A stretch of DNA of 64,000 bases, from assembly GCA_010093815.1 (NCBI GenBank), contig ML996595.1, one strand, 5' to 3'. The translations under genes and the position numbers were made by a program. This DNA is from Pseudovirgaria hyperparasitica (taxonomy: Eukaryota). Under the pieces are notes generated by a model. The model had not been told where the DNA came from, searched no databases, and was given only the letters and a program-made list of their open reading frames with translations. Positions 3,807 through 29,008 of this stretch are shown here, one piece after another. Each line of letters begins with the position of its first letter. Positions within the stretch are counted from its first letter, which is position 1.

Positions 3807-6595
3807 TTTAAATTACTCTCTATATAGTACTATAGTTAAGATAGTCTAACTAGAACTAAGAAGGTTAACACGATCTACTATAGAGATAAGTAATACTATA
3901 TTAAATAATAGGGATCCTCTATAATTAGTATTAATTCTAGCTATTTCTAATTAAGAAGTAGAGATATTAGACTAAATTACGGAACTTTCTAATAAAGAAA
4001 TAGTAGATATACTAAGTAACTTCTAATAATATAAAGCTAGATAATAAGTTATGGCGGAGCTATATAAGGTATTATAATAAACTATTACTAAACTTTAGAA
4101 ATATATCGCGAATTAGGCTTAAGAGATTTAAACTCTTAAAGAGTAGATAGAACGTACGAAACTCCTTATAAAGAGATAAGAACTTAAGGAGTCTCTTAAA
4201 GAACTACGCTAAATAATAGTAGGTAGACGACTTTCTATACTAGTTTAGGCGGAATTAGTTTACCTACTATTAGAGTTATAATAATCTACTATACTCCCGG
4301 CCGCTTCGTTACTAATTTACTCTACTTCTTCCCTAGATATACTAAAATCTAAAGACCTAACTATATTTATAGAGAAGAACTAAAAGGAGTAGAAAGACTA
4401 GAAGAGAGACTATAAAAAGTACTTCCTTAATAACCCTCTACTCTTTTCTACTAAAGTATAATATATTTTATTTAGAGAATAATATCTAGACTTATAATTC
4501 CGCGATTAATAGAATAGATAGAAGGAAGTATAGCTACTATCTACGATAACCTAGGAATATTTAGCTATATTTATATTAAATACCCTCGAAATAGATAGAG
4601 AACGTAAAAGAAAGATACTATCTAAGTTAAGAAGCGTAGTATAACGACTAAAATAGATATCTACTTAACTACTATAATACCTCTAAAACCTATAGAATAA
4701 TATCCCTATACTATAGGAAAATATTTATATATTCTAGTTTCGCGAAGTACTACTTCCGTTAATCTATAAAAGACTAGAAATAGTATTATTAAGTTTTAAC
4801 TATCTATATAAATTAGAGAAGAAAGCTAATAAATACTACTATATCCTTAAGGAACGCGGCTCTCTAGGTAAAACCGACGAACCCTATACGGGTTAGAAAT
4901 AAGGTTAATTAAATATATTCGATTAAGAGTAACCTTACTATAATTAGTACTAGAAGAGCGTAAATTAGAGTAGAAACGCGTTAAGAGGATACTAAAATAA
5001 TTAAGGCGGTACTTCTTAACGTAGAAAAGGATAAGATATAGACTTAAATATAACGTCTATTATAAAATAGTAGAATTATAGTATACTTCGTTACTATAAG
5101 TATAGAGAAATAGAATATATTTTACCTAACTATAAGAATCTAAAAAAAGAGTAGACTAGTATACGAGACCTAACTATATTCTTAGCTAAATTATATATAC
5201 TTAGGAGGAGCTATAGCGCCTTCTAGTAAGTAAAGACCTAATATTACTAAAAGTATTATTATCTATAGTAAATAGTAATAAAACTATATAGGCCCTTATA
5301 GATACTAGTATAGAAGATAACTATATTTTATTAATTCTTATAAAGGAGTATAGACTATTATACGATCTTAGTAAAGTTAGCTAAACTATTATAGTTAATA
5401 GATATAAAGTTAGAACTTTAGGTAAAGCTATAATAAATTATAAAGTTCATGACTTAAAGATAATAAAATAGTAGATATCTAATAAATTTATTATAGCTAA
5501 TATTAGCTAATAGAATATAATTCTAGGGATACCTTAGCTTAGACGTCTAAACCCTATTCTTAATTTTTAGAAGGAGATATTAACGTTCTAATAATACTAT
5601 AGTAAATTATACTAGTAAGTCGTAACTATTAGTAAGGAGGCATAGAACCTTACTATACGGACCCGATCGTCGTCGATCTATCTTATATTCTTATTAATTA
5701 TTAATAAAGATAAGGATAATAGTAATAATCAGGGCGAAGACACGCTACCTAACGTATATTCATAGTATACGGATATATTTTTAGTAGAAGATATATTACT
5801 TCTCTCTAATTATAGACTATATAAGCTAAAGATTAAGCTTAAAGAGGGAGTAGACGTCTCTTATAGTCTACTTTACCTACTTTTAAGACTAGAACTTAAA
5901 GTTCTTTATAAATATATTAAAGAATACCTTAGAAGAGACTAGATACGTTATAGTATATTATTAGCTAGTATATCTATTCTCTTTATAAAGAAGAAAGATA
6001 GAAGTTTATATCTATATATTAACTATTAGATACTAAATATAGTAACTAAGAAGAATCGTTATCTATTACTACTAGTTAGTAAATCTTTAGACTAATTAAT
6101 AAAGGTAAAGTACTTTACGAAGCTAGATTTACGAGATATATATTACTAGCTTTAAATTCGTTATAGAGATAAGTAGAAAACTATATTTTAGACTAGATAT
6201 AGTTATTTTAAGTATACTATCATACCGTTTAGGCTAATAAATATACTAGGAGTATTTTAAGAATATATTAATACTATACTTATAGAATTACTTAACGTGA
6301 TTTACGTAGTTTATCTTAATAATATACTAATTTACTCTAATAGTATATAGAATTATAAAGAATATATAAAATTAGTACTAAATTATCTAAGATAGTATAA
6401 ACTCTATATAAAATTATCTAAATATAAATTTTACTAATAAGAAGTTAGGTTTCTTAGCTTTATTATAATATATAGCGGTCTAAAAATGGAGCTAGACCGT
6501 GTAAAGACTATTATAGAATAGCTAGAACCTACTACTATATATTAAATTAGAATATTTATAGATTTTATAAACTATTATCGTAAATTTATTATACG

Positions 6596-6823
6596 TGTAA
6601 GAATAGGGTTATTAGATAGTAGTATAGTTAGATGGAACAATAGGGTGTATTCTATTATAGAACGAATTACTACCGAACCCTTTCGGTAGGAATCCGAGAG
6701 TATATACATAAAGGGACGCCGATCTATCTAGCACGTGACTATTTACCGCCCTTTACGTTACCTCCTAACCCTATTAGCTAAGGTACGTATAGGTCGGGTC
6801 CTACCTAAGGCTAAGTCCTAATA
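6596..6823 (-). repeat. 3' LTR of element B
   Basis: Direct repeat of 13751-13978; preceded on the minus strand by a polypurine tract at ~6825-6841. Confidence 0.96.
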
Positions 6824-7394
6824 ATTATCCCTTCCCTCTAGGAAGCTACCCTTAGCGACCTAGATTATTATCTATCTCTATATCCCCATCCTAAGTCTTA
6901 TAAGACCTTAGTCGTTCTCTACGCTTCGTCTTAGATACTTACCGATATTCGCTAATCTAAGATTTATATAAGCGTTTTTCTAATAAACTAGATTTTATCT
7001 ATCTTAACTTCTTATATAGGTGAGATTACCTAATTAGGCCTAGCGTATCACGTAATATAATTAGATAAGCCCGGGTACTACCTATATTAAAATCTTTTCT
7101 TAGAAATATTCCTTTCTTTAAAAAACTTCTTAACTCTTTATAGAGTTTTTTAGATTATTAGGTATATTACCCGATCCTTATAGATATAGATTTATATAGA
7201 TTTACTATAATTTAGTACGATTTACATAATTTACTAATTTTTATACCGTCCTTAGCTAGTAATAACATAATTCGTAATAATCTATATAAATTAATAATAA
7301 TCTTAATATAGTTTCCTGAAATCTCGACGCTCTAAAGTAATTAGCGCGGAAACAGGCGCCTTCGAATAATCTCTATCTCGTATACGTTACTAAT

Positions 7395-8289
7395 ATGTCG
7401 AAAGCTATTAATCTACCCTAACCTAGGCCGGGCTCTAATAATCTAGCTATATATTATTATAGTTATCGCTTTCCGTTATATATTACTCACGGTAGTACTA
7501 AATCTATAATATACGGTACTTATATAACTAAGAAGCGTTATTACTTATAGGTATTTAAGTAAGTTCAAAGAACTTTATATAGATTTACTTATATTAGTAT
7601 AGATTACTACTAGACCTCTAGTAACCCCTACTAATAAGGAGCGTGGTACTACTAATCGTAATACCTTAGAGAAGGCTTTCTATAAGCTATATATCTAAGG
7701 TAAGGGTTACGCCTAGGAGTACGATTCTAATAAGATCCGTAAGGATTTATCGGAATCTACTATAGCTATTATTACCGCGATTACTAGGTAATATCGTTTT
7801 TCTTAAATTATTATAGATTCTTACTAATATATATTAATCTCTATAATAGTACTAAAATCTCTACTACTTCGGACTTCTTTCTATATACTAGTAATATTAA
7901 AATTCCTAGAAAAGGTTCTAGTAAAAAGGCTAAGGTTCCTTTCTTACGTATACTAAAGAGCCGTAAATTTAGGGAAGATAGCTCTAATCTAGAAGTTTCT
8001 ATACTAAAGGTATATAGTTCTATACCGATCGTTAAATCTTTTTACTAATTTATATAATTCTTAGCGTGCCCGCGCTAGTCCATCCCTCTCCATCCCAGGT
8101 CCCGCCACTCCATAGATTTCTATAGAAGAGTTTATAGCTATAAGGCGCGCTATATAGAATTTATAGCGTCAGAACGAAAGGCTAGAGACTTATATTATAA
8201 AGCTCTATACTATACTAAATAAGAACTAGCGGAAGGAATTAGATGTAACTATCGCGGTAATTAGTACTTCTACTCCTACTCCGACTTAA
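7395..8289 (+). pseudogene. RIP-damaged 4-exon antisense accessory gene of element B (~241 aa; Cys cluster, C-terminal coiled coil)
   Basis: ATG 7395; exons 7395-7550, 7603-7787, 7850-8009, 8065-8289; three GT..AG introns of 52, 62 and 55 bp, two with TACTAAT branch-like motifs; intron phases 0/2/0 keep one frame whose internal stops are all RIP-type. Confidence 0.72.
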
Positions 8290-11200
8290 TTAGTTTAGAT
8301 CTATACTAATCGGTACTAATATATCTCTTTTATCTAGCGTTTTTAGTTTTTCGGTTTTAATTTTAAAGCGATCTTACGTCTTCTAGATAGATTAGTACGA
8401 GTTTATATAGATCTATATAGATCTTTATATTTTCTTTTAGCTTTCTTAATTTCATCTTTCTTTAATAATAACTTCTTTAATCTCTTTAGTAATCTATACT
8501 AATCTATACCGATCGGCACCGATTTCTAATGTCTATTTCTCTTAGTAAATCATTTTTCTAAGTCTCTTTTTTAGTTAAATTTTTAAAGTTCTAAGTTTAA
8601 ACTTTCTAAGGAAGTTCCTTAATTCCTTAGAATGTTTTAAAGATCTATATCTCTTTTATCTTCTTCCTTTTAGGCGGCCGTTCTCGGCGCCGAACTATAC
8701 TAAAAAACGTCGAATTACCGTACTTTAGTATAATTCTCTACGATTCCGCGGCTTCCTTTACTAATTACTACTTATATACTAATATTACTACTTTACTAAT
8801 GTTTATTATAGGTTCCTAAGTGTCTTCGTTAGGATTATATCCTTTCTAATAAATCTTATATAGCCACGTGCCATCTTCGGCGCGTTACTAGCTAAGTATC
8901 TACTTAACTTCGTAGATATCTATACCTTCTTACGTAACTACTTTATATAGTATCTATTCGGAACGATCCGGTAATAATAAGGCATAAAATAGCTTAAGAA
9001 GCGTAATATAGAATATATTATATATCTTTAATATAGGAGGGAGTTATAACTCGTACGCCTGGTTATTAATTACATAAGTAATCTTATATAGACCTATTAT
9101 CGTATAGTTAAGCTTCTTCTTTGGCCTAATACTATGAATATTCTTGCTATTTAGTAAAACTTTATCCCTAACATTAAAGATTATAGGTTTTCTACCCTTA
9201 TTATAGTGCGATTTACTATAATTTATAGTATCTTATAGTAACTTTATAACGCTTCTTTGCGTTTAGAATAGTTCTATAGTAATTTCTATTACTTTAACGT
9301 TAGGTTATTCTACTTTAAACTAAGTCTCTAAGAACTACGTATTATGGTTCCGACCGAAGTTTACTTTGAACGGACTTACGTAGGTTAATACATGTCGGCT
9401 ATTATTATACGTGAATTCCGCGACATAGACTAACCTTACCTAGTTATTCTACTTATAGTTATAATATACGCGTAAATACACCTCGACTATCTAATTCTAC
9501 CGCTCCGTCTACCTATCTATTTATAGATAGAATATAGTACTAAGTTTCCGCTTAATTTCTAGCGTATAGTAGAAATCCTTCTAAAATTTAGACGTTATCT
9601 ACAGACCTCTATCCGAAACTATACTATTTAGTATACTATAGAGCCGGACTACGTCACGGAGTAGTATATCTATAAGATCCGGTGCTTAGATCGTCTTCCT
9701 TATAGGGATATAGTATAATATCTTTATAAATCTATCTAGAACTACGAGTAAACTATTATAAATATATCTAGAATACTTACTTAGGGGTAGATCTATAATG
9801 AAATCCATCGATAATTCCTTCTATACCTTCTTTAGCATAGGTAATGGCCTTAATTCGCTATATAGTAAGTGTCTATATACTTTCGTATACTAGTAAACGT
9901 TATACGTTTTTATGTAGTCTTTTATATATTTATAAAGACCCGGCTAGTCGTACGTCCTTCGGATTAAATTAACCGTCCTTATAATGCTAAAGTACTCTAC
10001 TAACGCGTAATTATACTATTCCCTTAAAATATCGATTCGTAAGCCGCCTTCTAGCATGTAGAGTCGGCCTTAGAAGTAGATCGCGTCTAATTATCGTTTC
10101 TACCTTAATAACCACGGCGGATCTATAGCGCTTCCTTTTATACTTATAACTTTCTTTACTAATATATCGGAATTCTAGATAGATTTAATTAAGTCTTTAA
10201 GGGTTTTCTTAGTTTCTTAGATATTTATTTAGATTACTTAATACCCGCTCTAATTCCCGCGGAGAATCGCCGAAAGTGTCCTAGCTTCTAGTATTCTATT
10301 AGATAACTAGTCTTATAGTATCTAAAGTATAGTATAGTCTAAATTACACCGACTATCTACGTTATTCTATAACGATTTCTTATAATCTTCACGCCGCGAT
10401 AGAGGATTAGCTTTATTCTCTCTTCTAGCTTTATATAAGATTTTAAAGTTAAATATTCATATCCACTTAGCCTAACGTACTTATTAGCGATTAAGGACCT
10501 TAGTTAATATAAAGTAACGTAGATTTATATAATCTAATAATAATTCAATCTAATATGTAGAGTCTTCTAAATAATATCGTTATTACTTAAAACTCTTAAT
10601 AATTACGAGTAGTTCCTAGTCGTACGTGTTATAACGCGTCTCTATATCCGCCATTTTACGGGAAAAGAAAGTAACCGGGTGCTATTATACCTTGTCTTTC
10701 GTATCTTTATACGGTTAACTAATAATTCTAGTAATTATAAATTCTAACGCGTTAGTTTCGACCCGAATATACTTCTTAGAATTAAAATACCTAAGAATCG
10801 ACGTAGTTATAAAGTAATTCTTTAATGATCGGAACGTATCTCGCGCTTCCGGCGTTAACTATATCTTAACCGACTTAGCTTTACGCTATGCTCGCCCACC
10901 TATAGAGATTTTACCGCCATTCTCTATAAGTTTATTAAGTAGCGCTATAATTCGTAAGAAGCCTATAATGAATTTACGATAATAGTTTATGAAACCTATA
11001 AATATTCTAATTTAACGTATAGTAGTAGGTTCTAGCCATTCTATGATAGTCTTTACACGCTCCGGCTCTATTTTTAGGCCGCTATATGTTATAATAAAGC
11101 CGAGAAACCTAACTTCTTATTAGTGAAACTTATATTTAGATAATTTTATATAGAGTTTATACTACCTTAGACGATTTAGTACCAATTTCACGTATTCTTT

Positions 11201-13750
11201 ATAATCCTATATGCTATCGGAGTAAATTAGTATATTATTAAGATAAACTACGTAAATTACGTTAAGTAATCCTACGAGTATAGTATTAATATATCCTTAA
11301 AACGCTCCTGGCGTATTTATTAGCCCGAATGGTATAATAGTATACTTAAAATGACTATATCTAGTCCGAAATGCGGTTTTCTACTTATCTCCGCGACGAA
11401 TTTAAAGCCGGTAATATATATCTCGTAAATCTAGCTTCGTAAAGTACTTTACCTTTATTAATTAGTCTAAAGATTTACTAACTAGCGGTAATAGATGACG
11501 ATTCTTCTTAGTTACTATATTTAGTACCTAATAGTTAACGCATAGACGTAAACTTCCGTCTTTCTTCTTTACGAAGAGAATAGATACGCTAGCCGATGAC
11601 GTACTACGACGTATCTAGCCTCTTTTAAGGTATTCTTTAATATATTTACGAAGAACTTTAAGTTCTAGTCTTAAAAGTAGATAAAGTAGGCTATAAGGGA
11701 CGTCTACTCCCTCTTCGAGCTCGATCTTTAGCTTATACGGCCTGTGATTAGGGAGAAGTAACGTATCTTCTACCGAAAATATATCTATATACTATGAATA
11801 TACGTCGGGTAGCGTGTCTTCGCCCCGATTATTACTATCGTTCTTGTCTTTATTAATAATTAATAAGAATATAAGATAGATTAGCGACGATCGGGTCCGC
11901 ACGGCGAGGTTCCATGCCTCCTTACTAATAGTTATAACTTACTAGTATAATTTACCACGGTATTGTCGGAACGTTAATATCTCCTTCTAAAAATTAAGGA
12001 TAGGGTTTAGGCGTCTAAGCTAAGGCATCCCTAGAATTATATTCTATTAGCTAATATTAGCTATAATAAATTTATTAGACATCTACTATTTTATTATCTT
12101 TAAGTTATAAACTTCGTAATTCGTTATAGCTTTACCTAAAGTTCTAACTTCATGTCCATTAACTATAATAGTTCGGCTAACTTTACCAAGATCGTATAAT
12201 AATCTATACTCCTTTATAAGAATCGATGAAATATAGTTATCTTCTATACTAGTATCTACGAGGGCCTATATAGTTTTATTACTATTTACTATAGGTAACG
12301 ATACTTTTAGTAATATTAGGTCTTTACTCGCCGGAAGGCGCTACGGCTCCTCCTAAGTATATATAATTTAGCTAAGGACGCGGTTAGGTCTCGTATACTA
12401 GCCTATTCTTTTTTCGGATTCTTATAGTTAGGTAAAATATATTCTATTTCTCTATACTTATAGTAACGAAGTGTACTATAATCCTACTATTTTACGATAG
12501 GCGTTATATTTAAGCCTATACCTTATCCTTTTCTATGTTAAGAAGTACCGCCTTAATTATTTCGGTGTCCTCTTAACGCGTTTCTACCCTAATTTACGCT
12601 CTTCTAGCGCTAATCGCGGTAAGGTTACTCTTAATTAAACGTATTTAATCGACCTCGTTTCTAACCCGTATAGGGTTCGTCGGTTTTACCTAGAGAGCCG
12701 CGTTCCTTAAGGATATGGTAGTATTTATTAGCTTTCTCCTCTAATTCGTATAGATAGTTAAAACTTAATAATACTATTCCTAGTCTTTCGCGGATTAACG
12801 GAAGTAGTACTTTATAAAACTAGAATATACGAATATTTTCCTATAGCGTAGGGATATTATCCTATAGGTTTTAGAGGTATTATAGTAGTTAAGTAGATGT
12901 CTAGTTCGGTCGTTATGCCACGCTTCTTAACTTAGATAGTACCTTTCTTTCACGTTCTCTATCCGTTCCGAGGGTATTTAGTATAAATATAGCTAAATGT
13001 TCCTAGGTTATCGTAGATAGTAGCTATACTTCCTTCTATCTATCCTATTAATCACGGGATTATAAGTCTAGGTATCGTTCTCTAAACGAAATGCGTTATA
13101 CTTTAGTAGAAAAGAGTAGAGGGTTATTAAGGAAGTACTTTTCGTAGTCTCTCTTCTAGTCTTTCTACTCCTTTTAGTTCTTCCCTATAAATATAGTCGG
13201 GTCTTTAGATTTTAGTATACCTAGGGAAGAAGTAGGGTAAATCGGTAACGAAGCGGCCGGGTATACGGTAGATTATTATAACTCTAATAGTAGGTAAACT
13301 AATTCCGCCTGAATTAGTATAGGAAGTCGTCCACCTACTATCGTTCGGCGTAGTTCTTAAAGAGACTCCTTAAGTTCTCGTCTCTTTACGAGGAGTTTCG
13401 CGCGTTCTATCTATTCTTTAAGGGTTTAAATCTCTCGAGCCTAATTCGCGACGTATTCCTAAAGTTTAGTAATGGTTTATTATAACACCTCGCGTAGCTC
13501 CGCCACGACTCGTTATCTAGCTTTATATTATTAGAAGTTACTCGGCGTATCTACTATTTCTTCGTCTAAAAGCTCCGTGATTCGGTCTAATATTTCTACT
13601 TCTTAGTTAGAAACGGCCGGGATTAATACCGATTATAGAGGATCCCTATTATTTAATATAGTATTACTTATCCCTATAGTAGATCGTGTCGACCTTCTCG
13701 GTTCTAGTTAGACTATCTTAACTATAGTACTATATAGGGAGTAATTCGAA

Positions 13751-13978
13751 TATAAGAATAGGGTTATTAGATAGTAGTATAGTTAGATAGAATAATAGGG
13801 TATATTCTATTATAGAACGAATTACTACCGAACCCTTTCGGTAGGAATCCGAGAGTATATACATAAAGGGACGCCGATCTATCTAGTACGTAACTATTTA
13901 CCGCCCTTCACGTCACCTCCTAACCCTGTTAGCTAAGGTATATATAGGTCGGGTCCTACCTAAGGCTAAGTCCTAATA
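13751..13978 (-). repeat. 5' LTR of element B
   Basis: Direct repeat of 6596-6823. Confidence 0.96.
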
Positions 13979-15565
13979 ATACGCTTCTTATAAATTATAG
14001 CGCTACTTAATAAACTTATAGAGAATAGTAGTAAAATCTCTATAGATAGGCGAGTATAGCGTAAAGCTAAGTTGGTTAAGATATAGTTAATACTAGAGGC
14101 GTAAGATATATTCTAATTATTAAAGAATTACTTTATAACTATACTAATTCTTAGGTATTTTAATTCTAAGAAGTATATTTAGGTTAAAACTAACGCGTTA
14201 GAATTTATAATTACTAGAATTATTAGTTAACTATATAAAGATATAAAAGATAAGGTATAATAGTACCTAGTTACGTTCTTTTTCTATAAAATAGTAGATA
14301 TAGAGACGTATTATAACACGTATAACTAGGAACTACTTATAATTATTAAGAGTTTTAAGTAATAGTAATATTATTTAGAAGGCTCTATATATTAGATTAA
14401 ATTATTATTAGATTATATAAATCTACGTTACTTTATATTAACTAAGGTCCTTAATTACTAATAAGTATATTAGACTAAGTAGATATTAATATTTAACTTT
14501 AAAATCTTATATAAAGCTAGAAGAGAGAATAAAGCTAATCCTCTATCACGGTATAAAGATTATAAGAAATCGTTATAGAATAACGTAGATAGTTAGTATA
14601 ATTTAGACTATACTATACTTTAGATACTATAAGACTAGTTATCTAATAGAATACTAGAAGCTAGGATACTTTCGGCGATTCTCCGCGGGAATTAGAGCGG
14701 GTATTAAGTAATCTAAATAAATATCTAAGAAACTAAGAAAACCCTTAAAGACTTAATTAAATCTATCTAGAATTCTAATATATTAGTAAAGAAAGTTATA
14801 AGTATAAAAGGAAGCGCTATAGATCCGCTATAGTTATTAAGGTAGAAATAATAATTAGACGTAATCTACTTCTAAGGCCAACTCTACGTGCTAGAAGGCG
14901 GCTTATAAATTAATATTTTAAGGGAATAGTACGATTACATGTTAGTAGAATACTTTAGTATTATAAGAATAGTTAATTTAATCCGAAGAATATATAACTA
15001 GCTAGGTCTTTATAAATATATAAAGGACTATATAAAGATATATAATATTTACTAGTATACGAAAGTATATAGACACTTACTATATAGTAAATTAAGGCTA
15101 TTACCTATACTAAAGGAGGTATAGAAGGAATTATTAATAGATTTTATTATAGATCTACCCCTAAGTAAGTATTCTAGGTATATTTATAATAGTTTACTTA
15201 TAGTTCTAGATAGATTTATAAAGATATTATACTATATCTCTATAAGAAAGATAATCTAAGTACCGGATCTTATAGATATACTACTCTATAATATAGTTTA
15301 GCTCTATAGTATACTAAATAGTATAATTTTAAATAGAGGTCCGTAGATAACGTCTAAATTTTAGAAGAATTTCTACTATATACTAGGAATTAAGCGGAAA
15401 CTTAGTACTATATTCTATCTATAAATAGATTGATAGATAGAGTAGTAGAATTAGATAGTCGAGGCGTATTTACGCGTATATTATAACTATAAGTAGAATA
15501 ACTAGATAAGGTTAGTCTATATCGCGGAATTCGCGTATAATAATAGTCGATATATATTAACCTAT

Positions 15566-15937
15566 TGTGGAAGGCCGCTTCTATAGCCCTACATGTATAT
15601 GTCCCTAGCTCGATTACATGGCTTCATTGTATATTTAAGGAGGGCGTTTTCCTTGGTCATTCTACTCGGGGCGCTTCCCCCATTACTAATATTCGACTAT
15701 TCGACCTTTCCTTACGTTCATGGGCCTCTATGGGTATTAATTATTAGGCTTAGCTATTAAAGAATTAATTAAGAGTATTATATAGACCCGTTCTATTATA
15801 AAAGAGAACTAATAAGAAGTCGTGCGTTCAAAGAGAACTTATAATACCTAGGAGAGATACTTATAAGTTCGTCGCGACTACTATACTAGGAATATAGCCA
15901 TTTATAAAAGGGATACACGTAGCGATAGCTTACTATA
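15566..15937 (+). repeat. 5' LTR of element C
   Basis: Direct repeat of 26621-26992. Confidence 0.97.
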
Positions 15938-16399
15938 ATTTTAGAGGTTATACCCGGACTATAAACTTATAGGGGGAGATTAGAACTCCGAAACTAGCTT
16001 AGGGGAAGTATATGGCGTGCCTAATAAGGTAGTCTAGACTTACTAGATTAAAGCCACGAGTCCGGAAAATAGGGAGTCCGAAGTCGCTAGGGGCTAGCCT
16101 CTTAAAAGTAGCCGTAAAAAGCATGCGTATACTAATACGGGTAATAGCGCGACTCGAAAATGTCTTAGGGGAATAGAATATAAAACAGGGCTAGATAAAG
16201 TAGTAAAGAAGAGTTTAAAAACGATAAATAGAACCTGTTTAGTACTACTATAGCTGTTATTCATAAACACGGCTACACGAGTATACTACTTTAGAAACGC
16301 CTTACACGAAGATAATAACACAAGTAGGATACCGTGAACCTTATATCGATAAAGACAATAGTAATAGTTCACCTTATAAAGGGATTAGTTAACATGGAG

Positions 16400-19300
16400 A
16401 AGGGATAATAGATGTTATAGGTAGACGTATTAGGCTAACCTTTAGTTAAGGTAATCCCTTAGCTAATAACCTTACCCCTAGCGTCTCTACTAGTATATCT
16501 ACTACTAGTAATAGTACGATAGAAGCTTAAAATAATAACCTAGTAACTCGTAGAGAGATGCTTAACTTCTTCGTAGCATTTGCGCGATAAGGAAGGATAG
16601 TATCTCTATCTACTCTAGCCCCTAAGCGCTTTAAAGGAATAAACATCACGGCCTTCCTTTAGAAGTACAAGGATATGTATATAAACTACGAAGTTCCGCC
16701 TAATAAGAAGATAACCTCCCTACCGTTATACTACGAGGACTATCTCCGTCCTACTATTAAAGGAATAAGTAGGTTTTAGAAATAGTAGTAGGCCACGCTA
16801 CGTGAAGAATTATTAAAGGAATTCTCTCTATTTAACTCTACCCTCGAGGAAGGTACCATCCACTTTATCCGAAAATACGTGGAAATGGTTAAAGTAGACC
16901 TATCCTACTCTCTCTCTATGTACTACTCCCGGTATCATATTATTACGGAGAAACTTACGGCTAAAGGAAGCCTAAGCTCGTATTCGCGAATAGAGCTCTT
17001 CCTAGAAGGGCTACCTAATAGTCTTAAGGCTCGGGCTATAGAGAAATGTTAACTTATAATAGAAGTATATAGTTACGACTAGGTAATTATCTATAGCTTC
17101 GTATTACGAAAGGCTAGAGTACTTAAGGAACTAGCTCGTATTAATAAGTACTTAGCCGTACAAGAGCTGGCCATAGCCATATACTATAAATCAAAGATAG
17201 GGAGTAAGAAGACTAGCTTAGAAGAGTAGTCACATAAAGAAAGAAGAACTAATAAATTTAACTACCTCTCTCTAGTCGTAGTATACGTCGCGCTAGAATT
17301 AGATAAGTTTAATAAGATAGTAGAGAGATTTAGTAAACTAGACCTCACGTTAATTAAGATGAAGTTCTACTTTACCTCTAATCCCTTATTCCTATCCCTT
17401 AAGAAGTATAAACCTAAGCTACTTTCGGCTATTATTAACTAGTAGGCGCGAAGACTAAATCTTTTAGTATATCCCTAAGCACGAGGCATGCCTATAGAAC
17501 CAACGCAAGTTTATCCATAGAATTATATATAGAATAGAGAATACGTCTCTACCCGAGACTTCTAAGGAGGCGTTATAGCCTAGGATAGGCCTCGAAGACC
17601 GATTATATACATTACGTATAGAGGAGATTACCTAATATATAGATATCCGGAGATAGTAGAATATATTAGAGACGGATTACTAAATATCAATGGGGTACGA
17701 GTATTCTAAGGGCGTTTCGGGGTAAATGGAGAAGAAATCCTATTACTACCCTCCTTAGTAGGGCTATAAGCTACTCTATAAGCTATCCGGAACTACGTAG
17801 TAACGGTTTAAAATAGCCTAAGCTAGTATAGAGAAGGAGTAAAGGTTTCCATGTCTATAGTAAACATTAACGCTTTATAGGGAGTGCTAGTATATAGTAT
17901 TAGTATAAAACCTACGAAGGGTCTCTACTAGGCCTTAGCGGATAGCGATTCGAAAGAAGAAGTCACGTTGCCCGAGAGTAAGAAAGATAGATATATAGAA
18001 TTCCACGAACGCTTCGACGTGGCTAGTAATAGATATATCCGCGAGGAGATAGCTCTAGAAGAGCCCGCTATGCTTATAATATCTAGAAGGGGGATCACGA
18101 AGAGTATACCTAATTATACTAAGGAAAGAAAGATCGTCTGTCTCCGTGAAATACGTAAAGGGTAGTATATAAGGATTATTAAGGAATAGAAGGACGGCGA
18201 GAAGAGTAGTAACTAGAGAATATCTAAATAAGAGCCAACGGCGCCGGAGGATAAGATAGATAAAGGGGATAGCCTAAATCCTAGTTAAAAGGTACGTATC
18301 CGAGGCGTTAAGCTTAATAACTATCTACGCGAAGGATAGCGGCTAAGTATAGAAGCTAGCGAAGCATGGCTAGTGCGCGTTCTAGGGATAACTATAAATA
18401 TTACTATTAGCGAACTATTAAGCCTTAATAGTAACTTACGTTATACGGTATTCGAGAAGAGCGCCCCTAACTTTATAGCTAGAGAGGTCCACGAGGCTTA
18501 AGAAGAGAGAGCTAAGAAGAAAGGAAGAAACGACTATACTATGGCTCCCGAGATAAATAAACTTAATGTATTAGCACCCCTCTATACTATAGAGACGGCT
18601 ATTATATAACGAGATATTAATTAGCTTAAGGAAGGGATAGTAAGGCTAGTGGCCGAGTGTCCGAGGTACTCCGTGGAAGTTAGTTCTAAAAGAGCGACTA
18701 GTATAGTACTATTCGATAGTGGCGCATAGGTAAATAGCATTCGACTAGATGCTATAAGGCGTCTTAGGCTAGCGATATCTTCGCTTCCACTATATATAAA
18801 GAACTCGAGTTTAGTTAGCGCTACTTAGTATAGTACTCTATTCGTAGGAATAGTATAGTAATACCCTATCCGCATAGGTTAGATCGTTACGGCCACTTTA
18901 ATATTTATATATAGCGAACTTAATTATAACCTTATTCTAGGGGAGCTATATACTAGATAGACCTTACTTACGGTATAGAGGTTAGCCTCCGGGTAAGTAC
19001 TCTTAATAGTCTACTCCGTATATAGATAAGAACATATAACCTTTAAAACTAGTCTAGATAAGTATATTCTAGTCTTAGAGAAGGAGGGTAACTCCGTGGC
19101 TAGAGACTAACTATATAGTAGAGTATATCGCCGGAAGCCGGAGTTAAGCCGGATTATTAGTTAAGGGCTACCCTTAACTAATAATCCATACTAAATAGAG
19201 TCCGGTAAACCCACTAACGAAGGGGATAGGCTATATTTTTATACGGATATAGAAATAAGTTATATAGAGTTACTTTCTAAGAAAATCCGGCCTAAAAATA

Positions 19301-22300
19301 TTACTTAGTTATCGAGAAAAGATAACTTAGCCGCCCTAGTTACGGTGGTAAGGTACGCTACCTTTGTATATAAATAAGGCACGATAATAGAATAGCTTAT
19401 AGTAGGCTCTACCGGCCTCTAAAGACGGTATTTATCCGGGGTATTAAAAGGATTTAGTATGGCCACTATATATAAAAGAAAGGGAGTTAAAGTACACCCC
19501 GTAGATGACTCCGAAGCCTACTAAAAGGTTTCTAGGAATCTATTAGGGTATCTAGACTAGCGTAAATAAGCAATCGCACGGTAGACACTTCTTCTAGCCG
19601 TCTACCTAGGTCTTAACGCGTTTAATAGGCTAATAGAGTCTCGAAGGGTAACTATCCCGCTAGGAACACGTCTAACGCCTCTACGTATAAGTTAGCTAAA
19701 GATTAGAATAGAGCTACGTTCCGTAGAACTTAAGTTACTATATATAATCTTATTATATCGCGAGGAAGTACTAATATAGAAATTCTTATACCTTAGTAAA
19801 TTTAATAAAGAGGTAGTACCTCCGCAGGAGATCCGAACGGTAGAACATAAGATATAGTAGGCTAAGAACTTTAACATTCCTAGAGCCCTTTATAGGAAGG
19901 TACTTATAATTCTAAAAGAGTGTCTTAATAGCGGAAGGCTCGAGCCCTATAGTAGTCCTTATTAAAACGCCTATTTTCTCGTGGAAAAGAAGAAGGAAGC
20001 TAATAAGGAATAAGATTATAGGTTAATTAATTCGGCGATAGAAATTAACCGAGTTACTATTCGTGATACGGCCACGCCGCCCTTATATAAAGAGTTCTTA
20101 GAGCACTTTACGGGGATAGCCGTCTTAACGTTTACCGACTTCTTCTTAGAATATAATTAGATTCTATTAGTAGAGTATTACCAAGACTTAACGGGGTTTA
20201 TAACGCCCCTAGAATTACTACGTAGGATAATATTACCTTAAGGGGCTACTAATTTAGTAGCTTAGTTCATTAGAATTATATTAACTATTATATAAGAATA
20301 TATCCCGGAGAGGGCTCTACTATTCCTAGATAACTTAGGTATTAAAGGACCTACGACGAAATATAACTCTAAGAAGGCCCTACCTAGAATTCGTAGGTAT
20401 ATTCTAGAACATTTAATTAACGTAGATAAGGTTCTCGCGGATATAGAGCGCGCCGGATACGCCCTAAGTAGTAAGAAGACTTAGTAGTATATTAAAGCCG
20501 CTAACGTTATAGGATACGTCTACGATATTAAAGGGAGGCGACCGAGTAATAAAAAGGTTACTACTATTAGGGACTGGAAACCCTATAAAAACACGATAAA
20601 TATACGAGCCTTCCTTGGTGTTTATATATATTTCCGGATATAGATCCCCGGGTACGCTGTTATCGCATCGCCGCTATTTATACTATTAAAGAATAAATCG
20701 GCCTAGTAGTAGATAGCTAAGAAGTAGACCTCGATAGACGCGCTAAAGATAGCTCTAACTACTACTCCCGTACTAATAACGTTACGGTATAGGATAGGTA
20801 TAGAAGATATAATCCTAGTAGTAGACTCTAGTAACGTTAGGTAGGGAGCTACGTTAATATAGGAGAACGAGAATCGTAAACGTTAGCTATCGCGGTATAA
20901 TAGAGGAATATAGTTAAAAGCTAAGAGAAACTACGATACCGTGAAGCTAGAGTACCGAGCTCTCCTCTACGCGTTATAGAAGTTCCGGTAATACCTCTAT
21001 AGTACGCACTTTATTATAGAAATAGACACAAATACTCTAGTCACTTAAATTAACCACACCGTAACTAACTTACTAGGGGCGCTCGTTACTAGGTGGCTCG
21101 CGTGGATTTAGCTATAGAACTTTATAGTTAGGCACGTACCTAGGAAGCGTAACGTAGTCGCCGACGGTATCTTACGGATATACGAAGAAGAAGAACTACC
21201 AGACGTCCCTACCTTTAACCTAGACGAGTTCATGGATATAGCTCTATATATAGATATACTAGAGACGTTATTAATTAAGCCCGTTAGCGGGAGAGATTAT
21301 ATAATAGAGATACTCGACTATACCGCCATTAAGTCTCCCTTAATAGATAAATATAGCGATAAATAGTAGAGGATTATAAAGTACCTTACTATACTTAAGA
21401 GGCTAACTAACCTAACTAACCGAGCGTATAAGACCTTTATAACTAACTACCTAAAGTTCCTCGTACGTAACCGAATACTCTAGCGGAGAGGAGATAGACA
21501 TCGCTAATATACACGAGTAATTAAGGATCCGAATACTAGGGCGCGTATAATTACCGCTACTTATAATAAGATAGATTATAGAGATAGCGAAGGGACCCTC
21601 GGAAGGATTAAGGATAAGTATTAGTAGGTAGGTATACGTAGAGACGTGTGATAGCACGTGAAAACCTATAACGAATATTAATAATAAAGTAAACTCCTTA
21701 GAGGTCTTAATAAAGGGCTCCACTACGTTATAACGCCTATTCTTTAGTAAAGAATATACTTAGACGTAACGACGCTACCACCTTCCATAGGGTATAGTAA
21801 AGTAGTATCTATACGAGAATAGCTAAGCGGATAGACTAAGGCGGAGGCATGTATAGCGGCCACGTCTATAGTTATCGTAAAGTTCCTCTTTAAGAACGTA
21901 ATCTATAGATATAGAATCATTCCTAAAATCACCTATAATAGTAGTAGAGAAAATATAGGTGCTATAGAGGAGCTTCTCCGACTCTATAGAATTTATTAGA
22001 AGGTTACGTCTACGTATAATCCCTAAGTAAATAGAATTATTAAGAGAAGTTTTATACTACTCGCTAATGCTCTCGCGAAGATAACTAATGGCGGATTTAA
22101 GAACTAGCCCGGCTACCTCTATACGGTCGTCTAGGTAGATAGAATAATAATACGTGCTAGTATAGAGTATAGTACCGTATACCTCGTGCTCGGCCATAAA
22201 CCAATTATACCTATCGAAGTCGAATTCGAGTCGCTCCGAATACTCCCTTAGGATAAGGTGCGATTAATATCCGACTTACTCGCTCTTTAAGCTAGATAAC

Positions 22301-22821
22301 TTAAGAGAAGATCCGAGGATCTTAAGGAGGCCCATGCCTACACGATATAAACGCGTAAGGAATCGAGAGAGGTATAGAATAACGACTATTACCTTCGTTA
22401 AGAGTCGTTACTAGTTAATATAATTATCCTTCTATACGACTCATAGCGATAGAAGAATATAGGGCGGAAGCTAAGGTAGCATTAGAGGGGGCTATATAGA
22501 ATCTAGTCCGTGTTTAATTATACCTATAAGCTCGCGGAGCTTAATAGAGCTATACTTAGAGGGACGTTTCCTAGCTATAGGTTAAAGAAATATTTTATAA
22601 GAAATATAAGTAACGAGAGTTACAACGAGCCCTCACGACTACTAATTAGAAGAATTACTAAGGAAAATAAGGAGAGTAGCGATAAGAAAAACTATTATAA
22701 ATAACTTATGGAACACCTCGACGACGCCATACGAACCTAGGTAGAAGTGGTAATTCCTACTCTATAAGACTTTAATAGAGAAGAATATTTACGTTTCCCT
22801 AGAATCGATATCTTCTTCTAG
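16400..22821 (+). pseudogene. gag-pol of element C (RIP-inactivated; start approximate)
   Basis: All in one frame: gag APKRF.G.NITAFL (~16620), Zn knuckle ~17608-17646, protease LFDSGA (18709-18726), RT FLDD (20323-20334), RNaseH VDSS..G.G, integrase HHCC (~21560-21680) and NPQ.NG..ER, GPYRI ~22487; no chromodomain seen. Confidence 0.92.
19151..19187. repeat. Same palindrome, in frame inside pol of element C (between PR and RT)
   Basis: GGATTATTAGTTAAGGG-CTA-CCCTTAACTAATAATCC. Confidence 0.95.
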
Positions 22822-22874
22822 GGGATAGAAGTTTTTTTAAGAAGGGAAGGGATACTTATAAAAGTAGTCTCATA

Positions 22875-22950
22875 ACGATAAACTCTATTATCGAAAAAGG
22901 ACGATAAACTCTATTATCGAAAGAGGATAATGAACTCTATTATTACTATA
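22875..22950 (+). repeat. ~26-bp tandem repeat x3 (CGATAAACTCTATTATCGAAAAAGGA)
   Basis: Directly visible units downstream of the pol stop of element C. Confidence 0.8.
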
Positions 22951-23177
22951 AAATAATAAAACTTATTATTAAAGTAAGTAATACTCGAAAGAAGATATAA
23001 TGGCGTTTACACGAATTCCACCTACTATACATTAAAGCCGGTCGTGTAATCGAAGCCCACCTATTGAAGGCCTATTTTATTACTATGGAACGGGCCCCGT
23101 TAGAAACTAATAAGGAAGAAAAGAAGAAGGAGATATAGGAGAAAAAGATACTTATAGAAAGTCTTATAAGGATAAGA

Positions 23178-23345
23178 ATATACCCGGTATCTATTTATTT
23201 ATAGATTCCGCCATATACCCGGTAGATACATTTATTCATAGATTTCCTATATACCTAGTATATATTCATTTATAGATTCGACACGTATACGGGCCTACGG
23301 CTATTAGTAAGGATCATTTATAAAAATTACTATATACCCGGCATT
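23178..23345 (+). repeat. Degenerate ~33-36-bp tandem repeat (TATACCCGG...ATTTATTCATAGATT)
   Basis: 3-4 visible units upstream of the extra ORF. Confidence 0.7.
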
Positions 23346-23500
23346 CGAGGAGGTATAAAAAGAGAACTTAAGATAGTATATAACTCTTCCCTCTTATACC
23401 TCTCTATACCTTCTTAATTAATAAAACCTCCTCCTCTACTTCCGCCTCGCTTAACTACCTCTTCTTAGAACGTAACTCGCCGATAGAACCGATAATAATA

Positions 23501-26434
23501 ATAGCCCCGCCGAAAAAGAAAACGCCTACCCGTGAAGAGTTATAAGATCGTTAAGTACTAATAAGATAGACGCGGTCCTAGTTAAGAGTCGTAAGTACTA
23601 AAGTAGGGCCATTAACGGCTATCATGGTATTAAGGCTATCTACTACTCCGTACGGATAGGCTATAGAAGCTACGGAAGTAAATAAGTCTACTATTAACCG
23701 AATTATCGCTATCTAGGACCCGTAAGAGCGATAGAACTATATTCTAGACACGTTTAATAATCTCCTTTATATTACTAGCCTTATAGAATAGCTCTTAAGT
23801 AGTATAGTTAACCTCTTCTAGGAAGTAGGAGCCGTAATAGGGTATAGTAAGGCAAAGATTAACTCCTCTATTCCGAAAGAAGTCTACGAGATAATTCGTT
23901 ATAGAAGAGATACTAACTCTAGTATTCTAAAAGCTAAAAATACAATCCTATAAAACTAGCGAAAGGACCTCTCTAATAACGATAGCTAGTTACTCTAATC
24001 CGCCCTCGGATAGCTCTAGTAAACATAGAACTTTATAGAAAAGCTAGTAGCGCTCTTATAAATGCGGATATAGGCGAGAGCGAGGAACTAGTTAAACGTA
24101 TCTCTATAGTCCCGAATCGGCTAGGGATAGAAGGGAAGGAGAATTAAGGTATATCTTTAGAGCTCTAATATCGATACCGCCCTAGCTAGCGATAGTAATA
24201 AGGACGGTCTATCTCTCTAGTAACTCTCGAACTACCCTAGCCGATAAAATAAACTAACGTTCTATAATAAGACGGGACTTATTATCCCCGCTAGTTAATA
24301 GTTACGGATAAGTAGAATGGTTTATAGGCCCGTCGAATACTACCTATAAATTAAAGAGATAAGTATATTACCTCCGTCTTAGACCTTACCATCGCTAAAA
24401 CTAGCGTAGATAACGCCTACGGTAAAGTCCCCTCCACGAAGTACGCCTTCTAGTTTAGTAGTACGTCGTCTCTTCGAAGCTAGTCGTCCGTTTAAAGTAA
24501 GTATTTCTTCTACTACTACTAGTATACGTCCCTTACCGGGCTATGCGAGAACCTCTTTAGTACCTATTATAGCTACGCTGATAAAACCTACTCGTAGACG
24601 TGCCTTATCTACTAGCCCTTAGTAATTACTAGGGGCGCCTATACGATAATCCCCGGTTATTCTTAGTTCGTACTCTAAGATAATAGTATTAGTTAAGGAA
24701 GAGGACGAGCCTAAGAAGTATTAATACGCGCCTTTAGTAACGAAGACTTTTAAGGTAGCTATATTATTAAAGAAGAATTTCATAAGTATTAAGGGAATGG
24801 CCCTACTAGTACGCTAGAAAGCGTAGATAGGTAATATGGCTATTCCGTATAAAGTCTACTATAAGCATTACTAAGACGTAGCTAGAAAGAATAATATACT
24901 TATTAGCGTGTCCTACTTAAACCTAGTAGCGAGACTTAAAATAGTATATAAGTTTAGAGATAACGTGGGGGCCCTTAAAGTTTATAAGAACTACTATACC
25001 TAGTTCGCGAAGTACGCGCGGCCACCTTATCCGATAGAGGTATTAGGTATCTATTATTACTAGACCCTAGAGACCCCGAAGTAAGTCATTAATATTAAAA
25101 CCATTCTTACTAGTATTATATTTATAATTTAGAAGGAGGACGGTAGAATAGATAGGTAACTCTTTAATAAGTAGGAATGTACTAGAAGTATTAATATTAA
25201 AGGGCTCTTTAAGCTACTTAAAAAGACGACCTCTATACTTAATAAGAGTATCCTAGAACTCGCGAGGGATGAATTTAATATATATAAGTACTACTAGCGC
25301 ATGTTTAATAAGAAATCGAACTACGGCTGGCTACGAACTATATACTACTCCTATATCTAATAGTTTATTAGGTAATGTCTACTTTACTAGCTTACCTATA
25401 TTGCTCTTTAGCCCGATCTTAACTACTATCTAATCTCGTACCCGTACTATGCGAAGTCCTAGGATAGGGGTGATAAGACGGGTTTCAAGTATCTCGATAA
25501 CGCTATTAATCGAATCCTCGATCCTAGCAATAGACACGGGTTTAATATAATCTAGAGGAGTATTAGTCTCGACGATAAACGAAGTAACAACTATACTATA
25601 ATCGTTCCCTACTTCTATAAGTTCTTAAATAAATAGTAGTTAAAGGCTAAGCTCCGCGAGGGGGTTAATCGAAACGGTATAATTACGGCTATTAACGATA
25701 AGATCTATAATACGGACGATAAGAAATGATTTAGTCCCTTCGTCCTAGTCCCCTACTAGTCCCTTAAAGTACGTATCTCTAGCCTACTAATAATATACGG
25801 TACCTAGGGTCCCGTAAAGGGTGGAAGACGTATAATACTTCTATGGTATATCGCGGTTGGCCCTAATTACATAATAATAGAAGTACCTAAAATAGGCATA
25901 TAGGAATAACTCGTAGTAGCTTATAGGAATTTAACTCTAGGACCCATGTCTCCGTTAGGATTTTCTAATAAATATAGCGCGATTTCTTTTGCCTTCCTAG
26001 CCGTAGTTTAACTCCCGAGTTTTAACGCCGTTAGTAATATATTAGTCGGCCGTAAAAGATAGGATAGCTAGGAGGTAAAAGAAGAGGTAGCTATATAGCT
26101 TAATGTAAGTTCTTAATAACTTAAAGCTAAGGTAGACGCCTAGTTTAAGGAGGGCTCGAGGGTATTCGTAGAGACCTTTAAGAAAATAGTAAGGTAGAAA
26201 AGGCTAGTCTATAGGGATAGGTCGTTCTAGAAGGAATTTAATAAGGCGCGTGCCGCTAAGCGGCTAATTAATTTTAAGAAATTCGAGTCTAACGCGGGCC
26301 TAGATAACGTTAAAGAGAACTTCTATAGATAGGAGAGGCCTAACGAACTATCCGATAAGGAGGAATCTAACCTCTCTAAGATAAGCGACACGATTCTTTA
26401 GGAGCTAGCTCGTGACCTTAACTACTAAGATTAG
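23501..26434 (+). pseudogene. Extra ORF of element C, ~975 codons, C-terminal PhyH-like 2OG-Fe(II) dioxygenase domain (RIP-damaged)
   Basis: Same frame at every point checked from (M)APPKKK at 23501 to an acidic tail ending ~26428-26434; de-RIPped F-K-H-L-D (25484-25498), IQGSISLDD...NCT.IVP.FHK, IHGT (His codon 25796) and R-R at 25826-25831. Confidence 0.78.
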
Positions 26435-26453
26435 GTGTCTAAAAACCTACCTA

Positions 26454-26486
26454 ATTATTAGTTAAGGGCTACCCTTAACTAATAAT
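26454..26486. repeat. Same palindrome, just after the extra ORF of element C
   Basis: ATTATTAGTTAAGGG-CTA-CCCTTAACTAATAAT. Confidence 0.95.
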
Positions 26487-26620
26487 CTAGGCTAAGGTTT
26501 ACCCGCGCCGAGAGGTTTACTAGAGGCGCATTTTATTCGTATTAAGGTCTTTCTTTTAGGCGTTCTTCACACGGTTACTATACTACTAAGGGTAGTAGTT
26601 CTATGGGCCGGGGAGGTATA

Positions 26621-26992
26621 TGTAGAAGGCCGCTCCTACAGCCCCACATGTATATGTCCCTAGCTTGGTTATATAGCTTTATTATATATTTAAGGAGGGC
26701 GTTTTCCTTGGTCATTCTACTCGGGGCGCTTCCCCTATTACTAATATTCGACTATTTGACCTTTCCTTACGTTCATAGGCCTCTATAGGTATTAATTATT
26801 AGGCTTAGCTATTAAAGAATTAATTAAGAGTATTATATAGACCCATCCTATTATAAAAGAGAACTAATAAGAAGTTATACGTTCAAAGAGAACTTATAAT
26901 ACCTGGGAGAGATACTTGTAAGTTCGTCGCGACTACTATACTAGGAACACAGCCATTTACAAAAGGGACACACGTAGTAATAGCTTACCACA
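26621..26992 (+). repeat. 3' LTR of element C
   Basis: Direct repeat of 15566-15937; ends ...TTACCACA. Confidence 0.97.
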
Positions 26993-28113: not shown

Positions 28114-29008
28114 TTAAGTCAGAGTAGAAGTAGAAGTACTAATTACCACAATAATTATATCTAATTCCTTCCACTAGTTCTTATTTAGTATAGTATAGAG
28201 CTTTATAATATAAGTCTCTAGTCTTTCGTTCCGATACTATAAATTCTATATAGCGCGCCTTATAGCTATAAACTCCTCTATAGAAATCTATAGAGTAGTA
28301 GAACCTAGGATAGAGAGAGACGGACCGGTGTAGGCACGCTAGGAATTATATAAATTAGTAAAAAGATTTAATAATTAGTATAGAACTATATACCTTTAGT
28401 ATAGAAACTTCTAGATTAGAGCTATCTTCCCTAAATTTATAGCTCTTTAGTACACATAAGAAAAGAACCTTAGCCTTTTTACTAGAACCTTTTCTAGAAA
28501 TTTTAATATCGCTAGTATATAGAAAGAAGTCTAAAGTAGTAGAGATTTTAGTACTATTATAGAGATTAATATATATTAGTAAGAATCTATAATAATTTAA
28601 GAAAAACGATATTACCTAGTAATCACAGTAATAATAGCTATAGTAGATTCTAATAAATCCTTATAGATGATATTAGAATTATACTCCTAGGCGTAACCCT
28701 TACCTTAGATATATAGCTTATAGAAAGCCTTCTCTAAGACATTACAATTAGTAGTACTATACTTCTTATTAGTAGAGGTTACTAGAGGCCTAGTAGTAAT
28801 CTATACTAATATAAGTAAATCTATATAAAGTTCTTTAAACTTATTTAAATATCTATAAGTAATAACGCTTCTTAGTTATATAAGTACTATATATTATAGA
28901 TTTAGTACCGCTATAAGTAATATATAATAGAAAGCGATAACTATAATAATATATAGCTAGATTATTAGAGCCTAGCCTAGGTTAGGGTAGATTAATAGCT
29001 TTTAATAT
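28114..29008 (-). pseudogene. Second copy of the antisense accessory gene, in element A
   Basis: 895-bp reverse-complement counterpart of 7395-8289. Confidence 0.7.

Follow-up and report, generated by a model that had tools for sequence, protein, structure and literature searches.

The window analysed here is a 64,000-nt stretch of contig ML996595.1 of Pseudovirgaria hyperparasitica (assembly GCA_010093815.1), in which a chromodomain-bearing retrotransposon with long terminal repeats (LTRs), hereafter element B, holds an 895-bp unit (positions 7395-8289, + strand) for which a gene with four exons had been predicted from the sequence alone. Repeat mapping and junction sequences place nested LTR retrotransposons at 3574-29965: element A, with its pol on the + strand, contains element B, a member of the same family inserted in inverted orientation, and is split further by a third LTR element (15566-26920, 11.3 kb). 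The first 31 kb of the window are AT-rich (GC 0.21-0.40), with TA/AT values of 1.56-1.78 and (CA+TG)/(AC+GT) values of 0.05-0.23 at positions 1-31000; the corresponding values in the GC-rich remainder are 0.79 and 1.19. These indices are well past the customary thresholds, and positions 1-31000, called the RIPped part below, are heavily mutated by repeat-induced point mutation (RIP).

An antisense unit that lies between the 3' LTR and pol

The mapping of the LTRs of element B, together with the position and strand of its pol domains, places the unit antisense to pol, flanked by the chromodomain-like stretch on one side and the 3' LTR on the other (Table 1), in agreement with the original prediction. 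It thereby lies where genes of the antisense accessory class termed aORF-3R lie, between the end of pol and the polypurine tract (PPT) or 3' LTR. The gap from pol to the 3' LTR is about 1.8 kb and unusually long: 46 related loci were examined, 21 of them with an LTR pair, and in 10 of these 21 the gap is shorter than 400 bp, while several of the long-gap loci carry antisense open reading frames (ORFs). Searches of the unit region for tandem repeats with TRF gave short, low-score arrays alone, none of which explains the 1.8-kb stretch, and Rfam gave no family, only two sub-threshold miRNA-like rows at 8589-8643.

Table 1. Coordinates of the features of element B, of the proposed gene and its second copy, and of antisense ORFs in related loci (positions refer to the window unless a locus name precedes them).
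Feature	Position	Strand	Remarks
Element B	6596-13978		LTRs 228 bp; target duplication of 5 bp (ATACG), intact, at 6591-6595 and 13979-13983
3' LTR of element B	6596..6823	-	228 bp; direct repeat with 5' LTR 13751-13978
PPT-like run adjoining the 3' LTR	6827..6839	-	putative, assigned by inspection of the sequence
About 550 bp from PPT to proposed ATG	6840..7394	+	candidate antisense promoter site, if the gene is real
Proposed exon 1	7395..7550	+	52 codons; 2 in-frame stops; ATG kept in copy B
Proposed intron 1	7551..7602	+	52 nt; B has GT..AG and A has AT..AG; without CTRAY branch motif; GC 0.19
Proposed exon 2	7603..7787	+	61 codons + 2 nt; 2 in-frame stops
Proposed intron 2	7788..7849	+	62 nt; GT..AG; CTAAT branch-like motif; GC 0.16; A and B identical
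Proposed exon 3	7850..8009	+	1 nt + 53 codons; stop-free; basic
Proposed intron 3	8010..8064	+	55 nt; GT..AG; CTAAT branch-like motif; GC 0.22
Proposed exon 4	8065..8289	+	74 codons and terminal TAA; four internal stops, at codons 17, 31, 34 and 54; hydrophobic pattern resembling heptads
Pol of element B, RIP-damaged	8650..12300	-	one frame; putative pol end about 8650-8760
Chromodomain-like stretch of element B	8917-8770	-	part of the pol frame
SH3_Tf2-1 of element B	8990-9166	-	Pfam match
Integrase zinc finger of element B	9902-10042	-	Pfam match
RNase H of element B	10460-10855	-	Pfam match
Reverse transcriptase (RVT_1) of element B	11090-11572	-	Pfam match, 2.3e-21
Copy of the unit in element A	28114..29008	-	more heavily RIPped; start codon ATA; intron-1 donor AT
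L019-type antisense ORF	L019:4586-5119	-	178 aa; clearest case
L019-type antisense ORF	L038:5614-6126	-	further case
L019-type antisense ORF	L022:1317-1841	-	further case
L019-type antisense ORF	L060:2938-3321	-	further case
Diverged antisense ORF abutting pol	L076:5377-5982	-	202 aa; 28% identical to L019 type; basic; CX2CX6CX8CX2CX6C
Two overlapping antisense ORFs	L006:6066-7012	-	235 + 147 aa; rich in Cys and further on basic; GTATGT at 6342 resembles a donor site

The same unit is found in element A, as originally noted, so that it moves with the element. The two copies align without gaps and show 108 differences in 1100 nt, of which 100 are transitions, mostly CG in B facing TA in A. Given their near-identity after RIP normalisation (see below), presence in both copies shows membership in the element, not conservation. 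Contigs of the sequencing runs were aligned to 7250-8700 (1451 bp), and contig pieces, 5040 from run X1 and 1352 from run X2, fell in every one of the 30 bins of this segment, a coverage that records the presence of the DNA and not of an ORF; run X3 contributed one contig of 155 nt and run X4 none. With so many short contig pieces, the element family is extremely abundant in the genome. The stretch is thus present in both window copies and across the contig pieces, which is the copy-wide presence that characterises the aORF-3R class.

The four proposed exons join in one frame of 241 codons followed by a terminal TAA, and the three proposed introns measure 52, 62 and 55 nt and are bounded by GT..AG in all three cases in copy B, as had been predicted. 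Each of the two copies holds eight internal TAA or TAG codons in this frame. Stops in the RIPped DNA are nearly all of these two kinds (3-8 TGA per frame vs about 180-270 TAA and TAG), which can be reversed to CAA, CAG or TGG, and the 241-codon frame contains no stop that RIP reversal would leave in place; it is open only after RIP reversal. Reversals of this kind are realistic in this element, since at conserved columns of its pol 21 of the 23 stops trace to Trp (9), Gln (7) or Arg (5), and the Tyr residues (n=22) trace to Tyr (9), His (7) or Cys (4).

Evidence for and against a former gene

We consider that the likeliest reading of the 1.8-kb region of element B, with about an even chance of being true, is the dead relic of an antisense accessory gene of the aORF-3R class, and that the exact exon model of the original prediction accounts for roughly half of that chance. 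Besides the long gap before the 3' LTR and the realistic RIP reversal described above, and the C at 7419 and the precedents of the class described below, three kinds of observation argue for such a relic. First, the density of stops in the model is 3.3 per 100 codons (8 in 241), whereas 2-11 per 100 are counted in the domain bins of the pol frame of the element itself, and 7.8-11.2 per 100 in whole frames. Windows of 892 nt that admit three introns and at most six stops fall mainly in pol-sense regions of A and B, and the unit forms an unbroken run of them on the antisense strand in both copies. Elsewhere they are isolated (starts at 8959 and 9559-9609 on the - strand and at 15001 on the + strand), and the + strand of 8400-13700, which is antisense to the pol of B, has none. 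Second, the proposed introns are the AT-richest troughs of the region: their residual GC is 0.16-0.22 vs 0.31-0.41 in the exons, they lie in the 3rd-7th percentile of GC among 56-nt windows, and two of the three have CTAAT at branch distance. Third, a loose zinc-cluster-like pattern of Tyr or Cys codons, which has eight starts in about 62,000 codons of RIPped DNA, is free of stops only in exon 1 of B and A.

The unit belongs to the roughly 1.8-kb segment between pol and the PPT or 3' LTR of a high-copy Ty3/gypsy chromovirus family, in which all copies seen are inactivated by RIP. If the region was such a gene, its transcription would have begun at a promoter of its own close to the 3' LTR and run towards pol, and its product, a small protein, would have regulated the element in the nucleus or by binding nucleic acid. 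By standard reasoning from retrotransposition-indicator cassettes, an intron is not removed when it lies antisense to the genomic RNA. We propose that the introns of the unit may likewise have survived retrotransposition because they are antisense in the genomic RNA and would not be spliced from it.

The main alternative is that the region is non-coding, a long 3' internal or untranslated region in which the gene is an artefact of the freedom that RIP reversal allows where TAA, TAG, GTA and Tyr codons abound. We give this explanation a substantial probability, somewhat short of even, and a series of results weigh in its favour and against a former gene. RIP reversal leaves 116 of the 241 codons ambiguous, and very many peptides other than the de-RIPped one can be read from the frame. 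In a chance control by dynamic programming, in which any three GT..AG introns of 45-80 nt were allowed in 603 windows per strand, models with at most five stops were obtained in the RIPped part in 85/603 windows on the + strand and 83/603 on the - strand. Openness after de-RIPping is weak evidence in itself, given that almost any stop is reversible and such control models are frequent; the predicted open frame thus stands in so far as all eight stops can be reversed, but is not shown to exceed chance. The low GC of the introns is in part circular, because stop-rich DNA is AT-rich, and intron-like GT..CTRAY..AG patterns number 73-74 per 31-kb strand by chance. Two stretches are open in ways that the model does not use, namely the frame of exon 3, which is stop-free at 7785-8046 (87 codons) straight through proposed intron 2, and a different frame, which is stop-free at 8076-8220 across proposed exon 4. 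The two window copies, moreover, are 99.33% identical over 1792 nt after RIP normalisation (C->T and G->A collapsed), so that A and B amount to one observation, that is, two RIP outcomes of one recent sequence. Finally, purine/pyrimidine (R/Y) codon patterns, which RIP does not alter, give the true pol frame a score of +33 bits and the candidate +9.4 bits, but the latter falls to -0.3 (p=0.42) without the stop-like YRR class; the R/Y score is therefore not independent of the stop count.

The searches for homologues point in the same direction, as none of the exons found one. With stops written as X, the joined frame of exons 2 and 4 had no match at E<=0.001 among 1,835,955,588 representative proteins searched with phmmer, and a word-based search with the frame of exons 1 and 3 gave no match at E<=10. 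Against 80 related loci, which are metagenome chromovirus loci retrieved by means of an alignment of eight of the proteins that matched the pol control below, the lowest E value that any of the four exons reached in tblastn was 1.0, and a RIP-aware profile of the candidate, run on these loci and 127 proteins, did no better than in the reversed database (at best 6.0 bits on the loci vs 6.5). As RIP lowers sensitivity, these null results come from less sensitive searches; yet a RIPped 481-aa piece of the pol of element B, used as a control, matched 11 proteins (best 1.7e-50). The best identity between B and the related loci in the segment from reverse transcriptase (RT) to RNase H is 45%.

Several of the observations made above argue against a non-coding region. 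The stop density of the unit is below that of true pol, the low-stop signal is specific to one strand and one place in A and B, the stop-free Tyr/Cys pattern occurs only here, and the AT troughs coincide with the GT..AG intervals. A non-coding insert of 1.8 kb kept in thousands of contig pieces would itself require an explanation, and neither the tandem repeats nor Rfam supply one.

Variation among the other copies of the family bears on the same question to a limited extent. Variants at a share of at least 4% were called on the contig alignment, and 40 of the 97 variant rows were listed. At 34 places in the 1451 bp (17 T>C and 17 A>G) copies show C or G in place of the window's T or A, which suggests that most RIP changes are common to nearly all copies. 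With so few places of this kind, de-RIPping from multiple copies settles a single stop: at 7419, T>C in 59% of the depth turns the first in-frame TAA into CAA, and this is the only one of the eight internal stops directly reversed among the rows listed. The expectation that other copies would remove the stops is thus borne out for one and, in these rows, finds no support for the other seven. At the proposed start codon, ATG in B, the other copies read ATA in about 90% of their depth. Intron 2 is identical in A and B, and the donor of intron 1 is AT in A. No joints were seen in the contigs aligned to 7250-8700, which are DNA contigs and cannot show splicing.

A second alternative, which we regard as rather unlikely, is that a real ancestral antisense gene had another structure, with different exon borders, fewer introns or two small ORFs. 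The two open stretches mentioned above would suit it, as would a GTAAGG donor-like site after the stop at 7696-7698, the absence of a CTRAY motif from intron 1 and the optimum reached by dynamic programming, which has five stops vs eight in the predicted model. On the other hand, the R/Y score ranks the predicted frame first among the three sense frames in every one of the four exons, though the margins are small (in exon 1, -0.3 vs -1.7 and -6.5), and none of the features measured here discriminates between exon models.

The remaining alternative, a sense-strand feature (an extension of pol or an env-like ORF) or a captured fragment of a host gene or foreign transposable element, is very improbable: sense ORFs do follow pol in related loci (L011, L024, L036 and L055) and transduction is a recognised source of extra ORFs (PMC7264820), but pol-sense low-stop windows occur here only at the edge of pol (one in B, at 8959, and two in A, at 26501-26551, which touch the neighbouring LTR), open stretches of at least 40 codons on the - strand span only 40-67 codons, no Pfam family matches in six frames, and the RIP-normalised DNA resembles nothing else in the window.

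Zinc-cluster-like genes of related chromoviruses

The original prediction went further and read the N-terminus of the product as a zinc-cluster-like domain and its C-terminal part as a coiled coil, of an element-encoded DNA-binding regulator or anti-silencing factor. We looked for Cys positions as either Cys or Tyr codons, since Cys survives RIP only as one of these. The possible Cys positions of exon 1 are spaced CX2CX4CX10CX2CX6C, with four residues in the first loop where the first half of a Zn2Cys6 domain, CX2CX6C, has six; the canonical spacing CX2CX6CX5-12CX2CX6-8C is not found, and no Tyr triple in exon 1 fits CX2CX6C. Pfam searches of six frames of 7200-8500, a weak test given the RIP damage, gave no family at E<=1, neither Zn_clus nor TRP28, and none of the variant rows listed contains an A>G change restoring Cys at the six Tyr codons. 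The exon-4 heptad pattern ranks within the top 0.285% among 61,750 windows, yet no fewer than 24 further places of the RIPped DNA score as high. The zinc cluster is thus a doubtful reading, the coiled coil has a heptad pattern that is far from unique, and a zinc-cluster/coiled-coil protein is an improbable reading of the unit. No evidence at all was obtained for an anti-silencing factor.

A DNA-binding regulator encoded by the element would be a putative one in the unit itself, but it has parallels in related elements. Antisense ORFs were seen in the region between pol and LTR of several related metagenome chromovirus loci, and the clearest, that of locus L019, defines a type present in 4/80 loci, which starts 5-23 nt past the pol match in three of them (L019, L038 and L060). 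Its family comprises 116 protein clusters (P0012-P0127) of about 165-175 aa, encoded by a single exon and without a Pfam domain, from metagenomic and Pleosporales chromoviruses, including hypothetical proteins of Sporormia, Macroventuria and Ascochyta. Substitutions between loci, counted by codon position, are [13,5,39] and [19,19,69]; as they fall on third positions, the L019-type ORF is a selected gene, under purifying selection. The L019 protein has the spacing CX2CX6CX9CX2CX6C followed by a 55-residue helix, and the family has CX2CX6CX8-9CX2CX6C with the conserved motifs VN[LM]SW and LLRNKKIL. The Foldseek matches listed (14 rows, ranks to 15) are all Zn2Cys6 DNA-binding domains, at weak E values of 0.65-4.5, and include Pho7, Ppr1, Put3, Gal4, Hap1, AlcR and Leu3. 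In the PDB, Ppr1 gives the best sequence match (E 1.1), in which the six Cys all align, and structural neighbours in the Atlas are mostly Zn(2)-C6 proteins. From these comparisons, the L019-type protein resembles a Zn2Cys6 DNA-binding domain reduced to its minimum and joined to a dimerisation helix.

Two further loci carry related arrangements. A diverged ORF in L076 abuts pol, and in L006, which is among the closest relatives by RT (45%) and has a pol-LTR gap of 1.9 kb, two overlapping antisense ORFs may represent a spliced antisense gene of about 240 aa; an Atlas look-up of the L006 ORF gave no usable match. Since related elements carry antisense genes of this sort, the class of explanation put forward in the original prediction exists in nature.

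Assignment of the unit itself to the L019 type finds no evidence in the sequence comparisons, which again weigh against a zinc-cluster gene. The plain family HMM had no match in the unit, and a RIP-aware version of the profile scored 12.5 bits on exon 1 (p about 0.11), 12.2 bits on exon 2 (p 0.16) and below the null mean on exons 3-4, that is, at noise; on the merged A/B ancestral sets exon 1 reached 12.4 bits, the 13th peak of 14,640 positions. RIP-aware Smith-Waterman comparison of the three + frames of 7267-8700 with L006_a, L006_b and L019_c (9 tests) gave best z values of about 2.7-2.9, which stem from basic composition. It could be that ascomycete chromoviruses repeatedly carry an antisense Gal4-like zinc-cluster/coiled-coil regulator and that the unit is a diverged, intron-bearing version of it, whose Cys codons RIP turned to Tyr and whose Gln and Trp codons it turned to stops; we hold this broader proposal to be doubtful, with a small probability.

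Other features of the window were noted in the course of this work. The third LTR element is less RIPped (GC 0.36-0.40), has LTRs of at least 300 bp and an RNase H on the + strand near 20.7-21.2 kb; about 3.5 kb separates its likely pol end from the 3' LTR, the - strand has low-stop windows at 24.7-25.4 kb, and it may carry extra content too. In the GC-rich remainder, a host Zn2Cys6 transcription factor gene lies at 37727-39512 (+; Zn_clus 6.2e-09 at 37727-38623 and Fungal_trans_2 1.5e-15), with an apparent intron or frame change near 38.5 kb. A weak match of the L019-type HMM at 38245-38472 (-) was rejected, as the actual gene there is this host factor, on the + strand and unrelated to the unit. 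The RIP-normalised DNA of the unit showed no similarity to the rest of the window, this gene included.

In this genome the candidate gene is dead. If the relic reading is true, the unit would extend the few known cases of LTR retrotransposons with an antisense accessory gene to another fungal lineage besides Sclerotiniaceae, the second among fungi, and would be an intron-bearing example. The more useful outcome is a side result, namely the intact, selected Zn2Cys6-like antisense genes of related chromoviruses: with a protein of predictable biochemistry, the L019 type, the role of retrotransposon antisense genes becomes testable. A search of the literature library used found no paper tying Zn2Cys6 to antisense genes of LTR retrotransposons, nor a description of the L019-type family.

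Comparison with known antisense genes

The HBZ product of human T-cell leukaemia virus type 1 (HTLV-1) is a bZIP protein. PMC11963269 mentions HBZ, and PMC7264820 an antisense promoter in the HTLV 3' LTR. HBZ resembles the proposed gene in being regulatory, antisense and spliced, in its place at a retroelement's 3' end and in encoding a dimerising helix. It belongs, however, to a vertebrate retrovirus and to another protein family, and the analogy is one of arrangement alone.

Closer in kind is brtn of the Boty-like Ty3/gypsy elements of Botrytis cinerea and Sclerotinia, reportedly described by Zhao and colleagues in 2011 (Virology 417:248). Extra antisense ORFs between pol and the 3' LTR are recorded from plants for Grande, RIRE2, Retand and PvRetro13, and from fungi for Boty (brtn) of Botrytis and Sclerotinia (PMC7264820, PMC11963269, PMC8365987, PMC4227169), and a BRTN-like transcript for Monilinia (PMC5987419). 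As brtn and the genes of Grande, RIRE2 and Retand have been described, this kind of antisense gene is already known. The plant genes (gene23 of maize Grande, that of rice RIRE2 and those of Silene and other Retand elements, with a TRP28 domain) likewise lie between pol and the 3' LTR in antisense orientation; they belong to the Retand and Tat lineages, outside the chromoviruses, and are intact ORFs, whereas the unit has neither TRP28 nor another Pfam match.

Like the unit, brtn is carried by a fungal chromodomain gypsy element, and the extra gene is antisense to gag-pol, lies between pol and the 3' LTR and moves with the element. It differs in being known from intact, expressed copies, whereas the copies of the unit are all RIP-dead, and no sequence similarity between the two is shown: the exon frames had no match in the protein collection, among whose entries BRTN records were not confirmed. 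The L019-type gene differs in being a single exon of about 165-175 aa with canonical spacing, where the unit would need three introns, 241 aa and a non-canonical first loop. Yet it has the architecture first suggested for the unit: a chromovirus carries it as an antisense ORF beside pol, and its product begins with an N-terminal cluster of six Cys followed by a long helix.

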